Shown piece after piece: positions 5,210 through 14,918 of a DNA stretch of 64,000 nt. The number at the start of each line of letters is the position of its first letter. The stretch's first letter is position 1. This DNA is from Nitrososphaerota archaeon (GTDB lineage Archaea > Thermoproteota > Nitrososphaeria > Nitrososphaerales > Gagatemarchaeaceae): the NCBI GenBank assembly GCA_029785825.1, contig JAFLYY010000001.1, positions 649,374 through 713,373 of the forward strand. Direction: 5' to 3'. The notes beneath the pieces are model-generated. The model saw nothing but the letters and a program-made list of their open reading frames with translations, searched no databases and was not told the DNA's origin. Both the position numbers and the translations under genes were made by a program.

Positions 5210-5930
5210 ACGCCGAGGGTGGCTGCGGGGCGGAGGCTCCGCCCTCCTCCAGTGAGTCGTAAGGGCAAAGGGCCGTGGGTCCTGTCGGATGGCCCCACAC
5301 TGTGGACTGCGTCCTGTGGAACGTAGGCAATGCGCGGAGCCCCGGGCTTTCTGGCGCACCTAGGGTCCTTTAGGCTGGATTCCAGATTTCGGGAAAACCC
5401 CCTCCTAAATAGTAAATTCCCCTTCGGCGGCCAGAGGCGTTGCCAGTGAACGGGCATCTCAGCGGGGGACAGATCTGTGATGCTCTGTAAGAACGCATCA
5501 GGACAACTCCCTCTCCGCGCGCTAGCGCTCATCCTGTCCCTTCTCATAGTTTCGAGCAGCGCATCATCGTTAGTTTCTGCCAGTACGCTCTTTTCAGGGT
5601 CGGCGTCCGCGGCTTTTACCGGATGATAAAGCGGCTTCGGCCCTAGAGGACCTCTGATAGCCCGTCCATCCAGCGACAAATCTGGCCCTGCATATTCGAG
5701 TTTCGAGCTCGTAGAGTTACGACAGCATCCGCCCTGGCGCGTTACGAGAAAATGTTCCGCAAGTTGCTCCCCCCGGGGGAACAGCCAGGGGGTTTTCGGA
5801 GGTGCAAAGTCAGGTGGCGCATAGGGCGCATCATCAGGGCTATGGAGGTGAGGGAAGCGCCAGCTTGGGTGCGAAACCATCACTCGGGAAAACAATCGAC
5901 CGGTGAACCACGAAGGTTTAAAGGTGAGAT
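5210..5930. other. ORF-poor, lower-G+C 0.7-kb stretch; candidate structured non-coding RNA locus, identity unresolved
   Basis: The plus strand is rich in stop codons in all three frames. The only long open frame is the minus-strand 5053..5895, which has Arg/Pro/Ser/Trp-rich non-protein-like composition and overlaps srp19. Hairpins are numerous (for example GGGGCGGA-GGC-UCCGCCCU at 5227-5245). Hand counts of two 60-nt lines gave 34/60 and 31/60 G+C. Confidence 0.3.
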
Positions 5931-9818: not shown

Positions 9819-9904
9819 CGCCCCCGTCGCGCCGAAGACAGGTGTTAAACGATTCCGGCGGCGCCTGGTACCTTATTGTACCCGCCCGGGCGGAGGGAGA
9901 GCCC

Positions 9905-10456
9905 TTGTCCAAGCTGTGGCTGGTCTCCGGCCCCCCAGGTGTAGGCAAGTCGACGCTGGTGTCCAGGGTCGTCTTGAAGCTGAAGAGTGCTGGGGTGATA
10001 GTGGGTGGGTGCACGACGTCAGAGAAGAGGGAGGGCGGGGCGCGGGTAGGGTTCGAGGTGAAGGACCTCACCACCGGAAGGAAGGGGGAGCTGGCTTCGG
10101 TCTCCTCGAGGTTCGGCCCCAGGGTTGGGAGGTACAGGGTGAACCTGGTGGACCTGGCGGAGATAGGGGCCGCGGGGCTCGAAGCGGCGGCCGAAAGGTC
10201 GGAGCTGATAGTCGTCGACGAGGTAGGGCCCATGGAGCTCGTCAGCCCTGAGTTCAGGCGCGCGGTCGAGAAGTGCGAAGCTACCGGGAAGCCGATGCTG
10301 GCAGTGGTACATGAAAGGATGGAGGACGACATCCTCGGCGAACTCAAGGCCCATGCGGAGGAGGTGGTCGTCCTGAGCCCTGAAAACAGGGACGCCGCCG
10401 CGGACGACCTCGGGGCGAAGCTCCTGGCCGCGGTGGGTGGGCCGAAGACAGGTTGA
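9905..10456 (+). CDS. THEP1-family nucleoside triphosphatase
   Basis: It has the P-loop LVSGPPGVGKSTL and Walker B VVDEVGPMEL. TTG 9905 has GGAGGG 7 nt upstream. The longer ORF from GTG 9842 would begin inside a TATA-like GTTAAAC. Confidence 0.75.
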   Translation: MSKLWLVSGPPGVGKSTLVSRVVLKLKSAGVIVGGCTTSEKREGGARVGFEVKDLTTGRKGELASVSSRFGPRVGRYRVNLVDLAEIGAAGLEAAAERSELIVVDEVGPMELVSPEFRRAVEKCEATGKPMLAVVHERMEDDILGELKAHAEEVVVLSPENRDAAADDLGAKLLAAVGGPKTG

Positions 10457-10484
10457 GAGAGTCTCGCGCTGTCGGGGGCGTGGT

Positions 10485-10513
10485 AGTAAAATGCTCTACA
10501 GGCGTGATATCAC
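10485..10513 (+). promoter_or_regulatory. TATA-like box (AGTAAAAT) followed by a perfect 10-nt palindrome GTGATATCAC
   Basis: AGTAAAAT lies at 10485-10492 and GTGATATCAC at 10504-10513. They are 35-60 nt upstream of the GTG start at 10547. Confidence 0.3.
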
Positions 10514-10546
10514 ACGCTAGAGCGAAAAGTCAGGCTTGCGCAGGCA

Positions 10547-11533
10547 GTGGGACTATGGCTAGCCGAAGGGGACAAGTTAACCAAGCGAGAAATCACATTT
10601 ACTAACAATCAACCTTACCTTATCGCCCTCTTCCATAGGCCAGTTCATGAGAATCTCCATCCGAAGCACACGCCTCGCATTGCAGTATATCTTCCCAATC
10701 TGGACATCCCTTACGAAAAACCTGTTGGGTGGGCAAGATGTCGAGTGTATGTGGATAAAAGGGCAAACGTGCCGTACTACATCTACCGGGTGAGCGGAGT
10801 AAAGACTGTCAAGAGTTGGAGAGCGCTTGTATCTTCTGTCTCCAGCGACACGAGTGACTACGGACCAGTTCTGCAGGGTTTCTTCGCTGGAGAGGGAAAT
10901 GTTAGAGAGAGTGCCCATCACTCGCGACTAGTCAGAATTGCACAGGGAGAGCCTTATCCCCTGCTGGAAACAATTCTGCGCCACTTTGGAATCTCGTTCA
11001 AGTACGGAGGCCATAGGGAGTATTCGATTTCTGGCCGCGACAACTTCGAGAAAATCCTCGCATTAGGAGCAGCTCATCTTCATCGTTCGAAGCATAAGAA
11101 ACTTCTCAGAATGATGGAGAGATACCGGCAGCACCACTATCCGTATCATGCCCTACACGCGTTGGTACTGGCCAGACTCTCGACTCCCCGAACTGCTGAG
11201 GACCTTGCTATCGACCTGAAGCGCTCGACGTCGCGGCTTCGTCAGGTTCTGTGCGATTTGAGGTCCAAGGGAGATATCAAGATGTACCATGTCAACTCGA
11301 CATACTTCTGCGTAAGGGCAACCTCCGGGGTAGTGGCAATCTCGAAGCAGAAGGCTCGGATTCTTGCTTTGATGGAGGCTCTCCATCGTCCTTTCGAACT
11401 GTCCGCAGAGTTGAAGAGGAATCGAAAGGCGGTCACCCGCCGGTTGCGCGAACTTGAACACATCGGCTTGGTCTATCTGGAAAAGGCTAATTGGCACAAA
11501 AGTCCGACAACCAGCCGGGTGATTGTAAGATGA
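10547..11533 (+). CDS. LAGLIDADG-type homing endonuclease-like protein fused to two C-terminal winged-helix domains
   Basis: Two LAGLIDADG motifs are present (GLWLAEGD at the N terminus, LQGFFAGEGNV about 105 aa later). Two HTH-like segments follow (TAEDLAIDLKRSTSRLRQVLCDLRSKGDIKMYHV; ELSAELKRNRKAVTRRLRELEHIGLVYLE). Confidence 0.7.
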   Translation: MGLWLAEGDKLTKREITFTNNQPYLIALFHRPVHENLHPKHTPRIAVYLPNLDIPYEKPVGWARCRVYVDKRANVPYYIYRVSGVKTVKSWRALVSSVSSDTSDYGPVLQGFFAGEGNVRESAHHSRLVRIAQGEPYPLLETILRHFGISFKYGGHREYSISGRDNFEKILALGAAHLHRSKHKKLLRMMERYRQHHYPYHALHALVLARLSTPRTAEDLAIDLKRSTSRLRQVLCDLRSKGDIKMYHVNSTYFCVRATSGVVAISKQKARILALMEALHRPFELSAELKRNRKAVTRRLRELEHIGLVYLEKANWHKSPTTSRVIVR

Positions 11534-12235
11534 CGATAGTCGGTGGGCTCGACGAAGCTGGGAGAGAGCAATGGCCCTCCATGCTCCCCAACAGGTTGCC
11601 TACTGGGACCCCTCGTTGTTGCGGGAATCTCTATTGAAAGAAGCAAGGTCAGGAAACTGAAGGAGATTGGCGTAAAGGACTCCAAGCTACTCTCGGCGGC
11701 TAGGAGGGATGAACTCTACCCCCAGATAAGGGAACTCGCCGAACACGTCCACTGGGTTGGAATTCCGCCGAGGGAGATAGACGAAGTCGTGACGACCGGC
11801 CGGAGGCTTCGGAAGCTCAACTATCTGGAGGCGATTTACTTCGCCAGGGTCATCGCCCATCTGGGGGCGGAGAAGGTAACTGTGGACGCCTCTGACGCCG
11901 TCGCCGACCGCTTCGGAAGGGACATCTCCGCCAACTTGGCTGCGAAGGTGAAGATTGCCTCCCTGCACAAGGCCGATATGAACTTCCCAATCGTGTCGGC
12001 AGCCTCCATAGTGGCCAAGGTCGAGAGGGACAGACAGGTGGAGCTCCTAAAGCAGGTGCACGGGGACTTCGGGTCGGGGTACCCTTCAGACCCAGTTACC
12101 ACAGACTTCTTCACCAGGTGGCTGGCTCGCGGGGCCCCCCTTCCCCTCTACGTGAGGAAGAGCTGGAAGACCTGGGACCGCTATGCCAGACTCGCGGGCT
12201 TACCCGGCCGCACAGGCTCCCCTACAAGGTTTTAG
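11530..12235 (+). CDS. rnhB: Ribonuclease HII, interrupted by a 28-nt intervening sequence (11565-11592)
   Basis: ATG 11530 encodes MTIVGGLDEAGR. The rest (GPLVVAGISIE..VKDSKLL..HKADMNFPIVSAASIVAKV..GSGYPSDP) is in the +1 frame. The span is 706 nt (3n+1). Removing 11565-11592 gives MTIVGGLDEAGRGCLLGPLVVAG, 225 aa. Confidence 0.85.
11565..11592 (+). other. Candidate BHB (HBh'-type) intron in the rnhB mRNA
   Basis: UGGG (11559-62) pairs with CCCA (11587-90). The 3-nt bulges are AGA (11563-65) and ACA (11591-93). The inner helix is GAGCA (11566-70) with UGCUC (11582-86). Cleavage after the second bulge nucleotide gives exactly the junction needed for DEAGRGCLLGPLVV. Confidence 0.7.
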
Positions 12236-14719: not shown

Positions 14720-14918
14720 ATGCCGACCCACGGAAGTCAGCAGACCAGCCTCAAACTGGCTGCCTTCAGTCACGAAGGCTGGCAAGGTTAGATCCCAGAC
14801 TCCGAAACTCGAGGGGAAACCAAAGGAAAGCAAGATCCCCAAAGTCAGGAACAAGCGGACCTACGAGAAGCGCTTCACCCTGAAGCGCAAGCCCGGCCAG
14901 AACTGGATCAGACAGTGA
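14720..14918 (+). CDS. rps30e: 30S ribosomal protein S30e, interrupted by a 31-nt intervening sequence (14739-14769)
   Basis: SD plus ATG encode MPTHGS, and this frame then hits TAG at 14789-14791. The conserved core [35 protein letters not shown] is in the +1 frame, ending at TGA 14916-14918. The span is 199 nt (3n+1). Removing 14739-14769 gives [19 protein letters not shown]..., 55 aa. Confidence 0.85.
14739..14769 (+). other. Candidate BHB (HBh'-type) intron in the rps30e mRNA
   Basis: GAAG (14733-36) pairs with CUUC (14764-67). The 3-nt bulges are UCA (14737-39) and AGU (14768-70). The inner helix is GCAG (14740-43) with CUGC (14760-63), plus CCA (14745-47) with UGG (14757-59). Cleavage after the second bulge nucleotide recreates a CUC Leu codon. 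Confidence 0.7.

Follow-up and report, generated by a model that had tools for sequence, protein, structure and literature searches.

Organization of the rnhB locus

The rnhB gene encodes RNase HII, a type 2 RNase H whose active site consists of four carboxylates (DEDD). We analyzed this gene in a 64,000-nt stretch of DNA, here called the window, on contig JAFLYY010000001.1 of a metagenome-assembled genome (MAG) from an uncultured, high-GC (64%) member of the Nitrososphaerota (Thaumarchaeota) labeled at NCBI as Nitrososphaerota archaeon. At this locus an NTPase gene and a LAGLIDADG-like open reading frame (ORF) precede rnhB, and within its DEAGRG motif, which holds the catalytic Asp and Glu, rnhB is interrupted by 28 nt that can fold into a bulge-helix-bulge (BHB). 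Coordinates are window positions unless a relative is named, and rnhB and the features upstream of it lie on the + strand.

Translation from ATG 11530 reads MTIVGGLDEAGR and runs onward into EQWPSMLPN until TGA 11635-11637, so that MTIVGGLDEAGREQWPSMLPNRLPTGTPRCCGNLY precedes the stop and the unspliced frame is closed after 35 aa. The span 11530-12235 is 706 nt, or 3n+1, and a mechanical ORF call places the start of rnhB at GTG 11543, giving 230 aa without the catalytic Asp-Glu. The NCBI annotation is a 5′-truncated RNase HII (MDG6988394.1, our P0001, on a 1.70-Mb contig) whose protein starts past the active site. A second contig (P0392) carries an identical ORF with the insert. Every one of these frame and start coordinates, first set out in an earlier note on this DNA, was reproduced.

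Removal of 11565-11592, 11566-11593, or 11567-11594 yields one and the same 678-nt coding sequence and 225-aa protein, so the three junction choices of the earlier note, shifted by 1 or 2 nt, do give an identical mature sequence. The spliced protein covers positions 2-198 of the 199 in Pfam RNase_HII (PF01351) with a score of 139 bits, and the N-terminal DEAGRG is contained in the domain only after 11565-11592 is taken out. Its sequence GLDEAGRGCLLGPLVVAG aligns residue for residue and gap-free with GIDEAGKGCVIGPLVVAG of the A. fulgidus RNase HII, for which a structure has been solved. In this arrangement exon 1 (11530-11564, ATG to GGG AG) encodes MTIVGGLDEAG and the first two bases of the Arg codon, and exon 2 (11593-12235) supplies the third base and continues with GCLLGPLVVAG to the TAG. 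The predicted spliced junction is GAAGCUGGGAG joined to AGGUUGCC (GACGAAGCUGGGAG joined to AGGUUGCCUACUGG).

The annotated protein might instead be functional as it stands, with a start at GTG 11543 or later and a product of 225-230 aa. This is the model chosen by gene callers (P0001, P0392), and the unspliced GTG 11543 ORF still scores 120.9 bits against RNase_HII over profile positions 8-198. Such a product, however, would be without the Asp-Glu of the DEDD active site. Moreover, its leader residues are entirely different between lineages, and the DEAGR exon is kept just upstream in another frame in 9/9 sequences of the comparison described below. We therefore consider a functional truncated enzyme highly unlikely.

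Bulge-helix-bulge fold of the 28-nt insert

The insert AGAGCAAUGGCCCUCCAUGCUCCCCAAC (11565-11592) and its flanks form two 3-nt bulges on opposite strands with a 4-bp central helix between them. The 5′ strand of the central helix, UGGG (11559-11562), lies in exon 1 and pairs with CCCA (11587-11590) in the intron. The 5′ bulge is AGA (11563-11565), which is unpaired in the local minimum-free-energy (MFE) structure, and the 3′ bulge is ACA (11591-11593), with cleavage predicted between 11564 and 11565 and between 11592 and 11593. The inner helix joins GAGCA (11566-11570) to UGCUC (11582-11586) and is extended past a bulged A by UGG (11572-11574) pairing with CCA (11579-11581) around a CCCU loop. 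All central and inner pairs are Watson-Crick and the BHB fold is the MFE structure in a 43-nt context, in agreement with the pairings and bulges drawn in the earlier note. That note also called the outer helix weak, as we find it to be: AAGC (11555-11558) faces GGUU (11594-11597) with C11558-G11594, a G.G mismatch, and two A-U pairs.

We estimated how often such a fold would arise by chance by scanning both strands of the window for the strict geometry, requiring 4 + 5 Watson-Crick pairs and an intron of 15-80 nt (66 lengths over 128 kb). The geometry occurs 74 times, or ~8.8e-6 per position and length. Since only three position/length combinations restore the gene, the chance of a coincidence is p ~3e-5. 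Searches of Rfam and with ARAGORN gave no match. A window-wide screen for BHB motifs whose removal fuses ORFs returned 228 candidates and was dropped as unspecific in a 64% GC genome.

Inserts at the same codon in relatives

To compare rnhB among relatives, as the earlier note had proposed, we examined the 240 best RNase HII relatives. Most have an intact DEAGRGC, and several proteins open with leaders such as KLGES....CSPxGC, produced when an insert is read through. In DNA from NCBI, JGI, ENA, and Logan assemblies we found 11 interrupted loci including the window, of which two pairs are identical (L018 = L019 and L022 = L023), leaving nine distinct rnhB sequences in seven lineages. The insert always lies at the same Arg codon and is 28 nt long in the window, L013, L014, L018 = L019, and L022 = L023, 31 nt in L011, L020, and L024, and 26 nt in L021. 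In 9/9 sequences the predicted splice product reads DEAGRGC[LV][LVI]GP.

An assembly or sequencing artefact is another alternative, and the window does come from a MAG. The same site, however, is interrupted in all 11 loci, in diverged sequences from independent projects and assemblers, and a second contig carries the identical ORF, leaving an artefact with almost no probability.

Across the alignment the loop sequence and length vary while the helices are kept. Every cell of the central helix is paired (100%), including one compensatory change (U-A to C-G in L018). In the inner helix 95.6% are paired, and at three pairs both partners differ, as where AGGC/GCCU replaces GAGC/GCUC in L020 and L024. 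Pairing over all cells reaches 93.5% compared to 35-58% in a control with the partners slid, and five pairs are changed on both sides. RNAalifold, without the structure being supplied, recovers the central helix, the 5′ bulge, and the inner helix. The AGA of the 5′ bulge is invariant (9/9). In the 3′ bulge the first base is always A, the second is variable, and the third is a purine in 9/9 sequences; with cleavage after the second bulge nucleotide, a purine is needed at this third position to complete an AGR Arg codon.

The interrupted gene might alternatively be expressed by translational recoding, either by ribosomal bypass of the insert, as in the hopping of T4 gene 60, or by a programmed +1/-1 frameshift. 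A stable hairpin does follow immediately after the Arg codon, and in L011 a stop codon is found one codon past the AGA. But the take-off and landing codons do not match (AGA compared to ACA, AUG, AUA, and others just before GGN), and inserts of 26, 28, and 31 nt would demand shifts that differ among lineages. A frameshift would also leave ~9 extra residues within DEAGRG-x3-GP that are not conserved as protein. The varied lengths, the lack of matching codons, and the absence of protein conservation in the insert together make recoding very improbable.

Alternatively, the 28 nt could have inactivated rnhB on insertion, perhaps as a footprint left by the neighboring mobile cassette, and the gene would now be a pseudogene. 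The frame is indeed broken, NCBI annotates only a truncated product, and a mobile cassette adjoins the gene. Nevertheless, the downstream ORF is intact in 9/9 sequences, and the ratio of nonsynonymous to synonymous substitution rates (dN/dS) between intron-bearing rnhB genes is 0.12-0.15, indicating purifying selection, which excludes a pseudogene. In addition, the precise RNA fold is kept through compensatory changes while loop and length drift, and every version of the insert restores DEAGRG exactly. We regard a dead gene as very unlikely.

All public annotations of the intron-bearing rnhB genes are without the catalytic DE, as they start past the intron or read through it (P0001/MDG6988394.1, P0392, P0099, P0090, P0203, P0208, P0229, P0239, and P0248). 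P0254 probably carries the intron too. The truncated N-termini of P0089 and P0262 were examined as further candidates and rejected, being start-codon miscalls in intron-less genes. A profile of the read-through leader, used to find more carriers, returned short fragments only and no new carriers.

We also observed a TTG/GTG at window position 11491, exactly 20 codons 5′ of the Asp codon, which is kept in 7/9 loci (homologous codons in L014, L011, L018, L020, L024, and L022). It directly follows a TAA embedded in the conserved ..ANW.. codons of the upstream endonuclease gene and may be an alternative rnhB start that overlaps the 3′ end of that gene.

Interpretation as a probable pre-mRNA intron

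Sequence comparison, covariation, the RNAalifold structure, and the DEAGRGC products all support the BHB-intron reading of the earlier note, and the 28 nt in rnhB are very probably a BHB pre-mRNA intron whose splicing would give a full RNase HII. Several points weigh against it. In a 66-nt fold (11545-11610) the MFE structure is not the BHB, and its stability is no better than that of shuffled sequences (z = 0.45). The outer helix is not conserved, its second A-U position being unpaired in 5/9 relatives; this weakness makes the motif relaxed, as in cbf5, rather than a canonical hBHBh′. The alternative foldings of the outer helix need a 4-7-nt 3′ bulge, RNAalifold favoring the version with 7 nt. 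Because the 5′ strand of the central helix and the 5′ bulge code for A-G-R, their invariance is partly a protein constraint, and with only seven lineages available the covariation statistics are thin. In L021 the exon-1 frame lacks a canonical start codon, and neither endA nor rtcB was seen in the annotated part of the window. What is shown at this locus is the sequence, its fold geometry, covariation, purifying selection, and an exactly restored protein, and from these we infer splicing itself and the acting enzymes.

In the mechanism that we propose, the rnhB transcript would fold so that the exon-1 UGGG pairs with the intron CCCA with a 3-nt bulge on each side. The splicing endonuclease would cut past the second nucleotide of each bulge, between 11564 and 11565 and between 11592 and 11593. 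The likely cutting enzyme is the broad-specificity (alpha-beta)2 EndA of TACK archaea (Thaumarchaeota, Aigarchaeota, Crenarchaeota, Korarchaeota), a form that tolerates relaxed BHBs outside tRNA and is reported to be conserved in Thaumarchaeota (PMC5829648); broad specificity is a trait of the (alpha-beta)2 and epsilon2 forms of EndA. RtcB would then join the exons, and the 28-nt intron would be released and probably circularized, with CCCCAAC joined to AGAGCAA in the predicted circle. Cleavage by EndA and ligation by RtcB are proposed by analogy with cbf5, the precedent for an EndA-spliced mRNA (PMC2738675, PMC10485636). Splicing would rebuild the Arg codon of DEAGRG and with it a 225-aa enzyme with a complete active site, and the unspliced RNA would yield only the 35-aa peptide or a protein without two of the four catalytic carboxylates.

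The upstream LAGLIDADG cassette and a relic first exon

The conserved upstream neighbor of rnhB is an NTPase_1 gene (9842-10456; Pfam PF03266, 163.5 bits). In the intron-less relatives L016, L015, and L025 the two genes are syntenic and the NTPase_1 stop overlaps the rnhB start. In the window an rnhB-like sequence is found at exactly this place, 5′ of an inserted cassette. It spans 10453-10483 (TTG AGA GAG TCT CGC GCT GTC GGG GGC GTG G), encodes 10 intact codons (MRESRAVGGV), and its TTG overlaps the NTPase stop. As far as the Asp codon (..GTGG/ACGA) it can be aligned with the start of rnhB in L016, L025, and L015; it is what remains of the original 5′ end of rnhB. More decayed relics (..PVIGG and ..SVIGV) lie at the equivalent place in L018 and L021. 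Neither the relic nor the linked cassette figures in the earlier note.

The cassette itself is 1068 nt long (10484-11551) and contains an A(T/A)ATGCT motif, an ORF with LAGLIDADG and winged helix-turn-helix domains, and a new copy of the beginning of rnhB (MTIVGGL). Downstream of its junction, 14 nt separate the cassette from the intron. Deletion of both 10484-11551 and the 28-nt intron rebuilds (M)RESRAVGGVDEAGRGCLLGP, whose N-terminus is as long as that of P0002, the intron-less relative closest to it, and reconstructs the intron-less site as ..GTCGGGGGCGTGGACGAAGCTGGGAGAGGTTGCCTACTGGGACCC... The rebuilt N-terminus and the relic alignment together indicate that the cassette brought a replacement first exon. 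The intron-less loci L001, L006-L008, L015-L017, and L025 lack the cassette, whereas in 7/7 intron-bearing lineages rnhB is preceded by the endonuclease gene or by a decayed remnant comprising the last ~30 codons of that gene.

The LAGLIDADG-like ORF (10547-11533) encodes 328 aa with two C-terminal winged-helix domains, and its stop overlaps the rnhB ATG (ATGA). Its family has 111 representatives. In 35 homologues the motifs GLWLAEG and GFFAGEG and the acidic residues E7 and E116 are nearly invariant, and 32 of these 35 match Pfam LAGLIDADG_3 (PF14528; best E 3.4e-10). The window protein itself reaches 17.1 bits against this profile, under the 22.5 cut-off. Profile searches of PDB gave winged-helix matches and a marginal match to I-CreI (E 0.029), and a single-sequence AlphaFold model had a predicted local distance difference test score (pLDDT) of 36, too low to use. 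On the basis of the motifs and the family-level Pfam matches, we assign the protein as a putative free-standing homing endonuclease. The G+C content at third codon positions (GC3) of its gene is 0.50-0.60 compared to 0.71-0.90 in neighboring genes at every locus examined.

The endonuclease gene is cut down to its last ~30 codons while the intron is kept in L022 (2384-2479), L023 (357-452), L024 (310-399), and L020 (1-97), and it is split into two frames near 699-705 in L011 (520-1505). These truncated and broken copies look like different stages of homing-endonuclease decay.

Conserved ~25 nt 5′ of the endonuclease GTG start is a motif, GGTG-N(3-6)-A(T/A)ATGCT, found at 10478-10496 in the window, ~62-76 in L014, and ~1538-1556 in L021; it may be a TATA and B recognition element (BRE) promoter for a leaderless cassette transcript. 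In the same part of the window (10491-10549), conserved N-terminal codons (RKVRLAQAV) lie 5′ of GTG 10547 with no in-frame start. A candidate 23-nt strict BHB at 10501-10523 (UCUA/UAGA and GCGUG/CACGC) would join these codons to the out-of-frame ATG 10491 and give MLYRKVRLAQAVGLWL, equal in N-terminal length to the homologues, in a predicted protein of 338 aa. L014, L021, L018, and L011 have a GTG start in place of this candidate, which may be a third intron or a sign of a decaying gene.

A scan of viral contigs for the cassette found nothing. Two further models of the locus were rejected. A large BHB intron that contains the homing endonuclease and uses the relic as exon 1 fails as the relic ends before DEAGR. 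The low-GC3 5′ end of rnhB is not a co-conversion tract, given that intron-less L016, the closest relative and the best match along the whole rnhB gene, shares these codons.

Possible mobility of the intron with the cassette

Intron-bearing rnhB genes occupy at least five places on a neighbor-joining tree without support values, and the window rnhB is sister to the intron-less L016 (74-77% identity). At these loci a free-standing endonuclease gene sits beside an ORF-less intron in a conserved site, and the two are co-distributed and patchy. Short of proof, this linkage and the relic exon suggest a mobile unit of endonuclease plus intron. We tentatively propose, at somewhat less than even probability, that a single selfish DNA unit comprises both the mini-intron of rnhB and the LAGLIDADG cassette and spreads by collaborative homing. 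In rnhB alleles without an intron, the endonuclease would have as its target the conserved site that encodes DEAGRG. The cassette's own copy of the first exon would recreate that target, and the 26-31-nt BHB intron would break it and so act as an immunity patch, which the host tRNA-splicing machinery would render harmless. The alternative is an ancient gain of the intron followed by many losses.

A second interrupted gene and an additional region

About 3 kb from rnhB, rps30e (ATG 14720; 14720-14918) is interrupted after codon 6 by a 31-nt BHB intron (14739-14769) with a GAAG/CUUC central helix and the bulges UCA and AGU. Its excision gives MPTHGSLTKAGKVR, with GGAAGUC joined to UCACGAAGG at the predicted junction. 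The intron (31-32 nt) is also present in L007 (5484-5514), L016 (8396-8426), L018 (5530-5560), and L006 (6375-6406), and the central helix shows a compensatory change among relatives (GAAG/CUUC to GGAG/CUCC). In L016 a second intron of 20 nt follows nine codons on, placing two mini-introns within 15 codons, and L025 rps30e is intron-less. The earlier note had pointed to rps30e as a parallel case of the same architecture, and this holds both in the window and in relatives.

Elsewhere in the window, ~720 nt between SRP19 and Gar1 (5210-5930) contain no convincing ORF; the same interval is ~100 nt in L016. The region has no Rfam match and holds a strict BHB-like motif at 5324-5367 (UAGG CAA UGCGC...GCGCA CCUA GGG). 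It may be a novel RNA or the remnant of an element.

Comparison with known systems

Splicing of protein transcripts by the tRNA-splicing endonuclease has so far been described for essentially two genes, namely HVO_1309 of Haloferax and the cbf5 of certain Crenarchaeota. The cbf5 intron (Watanabe 2002; Yoshinari 2006; Yokobori 2009, PMC2738675) has a relaxed motif like that of rnhB, occurs in hosts with a hetero-oligomeric (alpha-beta)2 EndA, and is patchy among relatives through gains and losses. The rnhB intron differs in that it lies in another gene, at codon 12 inside the catalytic DEAGRG, in the phylum Nitrososphaerota, and in its physical linkage to a LAGLIDADG cassette and to a duplicate of the first exon; furthermore, splicing has been demonstrated for cbf5 and is predicted here. 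In Cenarchaeum and Nitrosopumilus, cbf5 is listed without an intron. In Haloferax volcanii the HVO_1309 mRNA is cut by EndA at a BHB and the spliced form is dominant (Schwarz 2020, as related in PMC10485636). Its host, unlike that of rnhB, is a euryarchaeon with an alpha2 enzyme, and in that account HVO_1309 is not described as restoring a broken catalytic motif.

Two other groups of introns resemble parts of the rnhB system. BHB introns of archaeal rRNA and tRNA genes encode LAGLIDADG homing endonucleases such as I-DmoI and are expected to move by homing at the DNA level. The rnhB intron is likewise associated with a LAGLIDADG gene. In the rRNA and tRNA introns, however, the endonuclease ORF is intronic and the host is a stable RNA, whereas in rnhB the ORF is free-standing upstream, the intron is 26-31 nt, and the host is a protein gene. 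Collaborative homing has been described in cyanophage S-PM2, in which the free-standing F-CphI lies beside the intron-containing psbA (Zeng 2009, as summarized in PMC6083498). There too a free-standing endonuclease adjoins a gene with an ORF-less intron at a conserved site; the intron would protect the host copy, and the endonuclease would provide the intron with mobility. That system is composed of a group I self-splicing intron and an Endo VII-type nuclease in a phage, and the one at rnhB would consist of an enzyme-spliced BHB intron and a nuclease-like protein of LAGLIDADG type on an archaeal chromosome.

A more distant parallel is found in eukaryotes, where HAC1 and XBP1 mRNAs are spliced independently of the spliceosome by the endonuclease IRE1 and RtcB, which remove a short intron and change the frame; the part played by RtcB is noted in PMC8718801. 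The excision proposed for rnhB would similarly use an endonuclease and RtcB to take a short intron out of an mRNA and alter its reading frame. The IRE1 system differs in being eukaryotic and stress-regulated and in its nuclease and RNA motif.

Implications

Searches of the full-text literature, many subscription papers being beyond reach, turned up no account of BHB introns in rnhB, in rps30e, or in protein genes of Nitrososphaerota. The rnhB intron would be a new member of the small set of spliced protein genes in archaea, and a 2023 review expects further such spliced protein genes (PMC10485636). With it, a further phylum has a well-supported example, located in the catalytic motif of an enzyme of DNA repair and replication, and rps30e adds a second gene with such an intron. 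Together the two cases suggest that these introns may be common and may produce truncated annotations. The conserved core can be used as a search pattern in other genomes, and the junction sequence as a direct handle in RNA-seq data.

If the collaborative homing proposal is true, it would have no precedent in archaea, and for the first time a free-standing endonuclease would be seen to mobilize a protein-gene BHB intron that is spliced by enzymes. With the one or two mini-introns of rps30e, it would also mean that protein-coding BHB introns are recurrent, overlooked, and systematically mis-annotated in Nitrososphaerota. The origin and movement of archaeal introns is a long-standing question, and the linkage to the cassette and the relic exon offer a testable route by which BHB introns may enter protein genes and spread among them.

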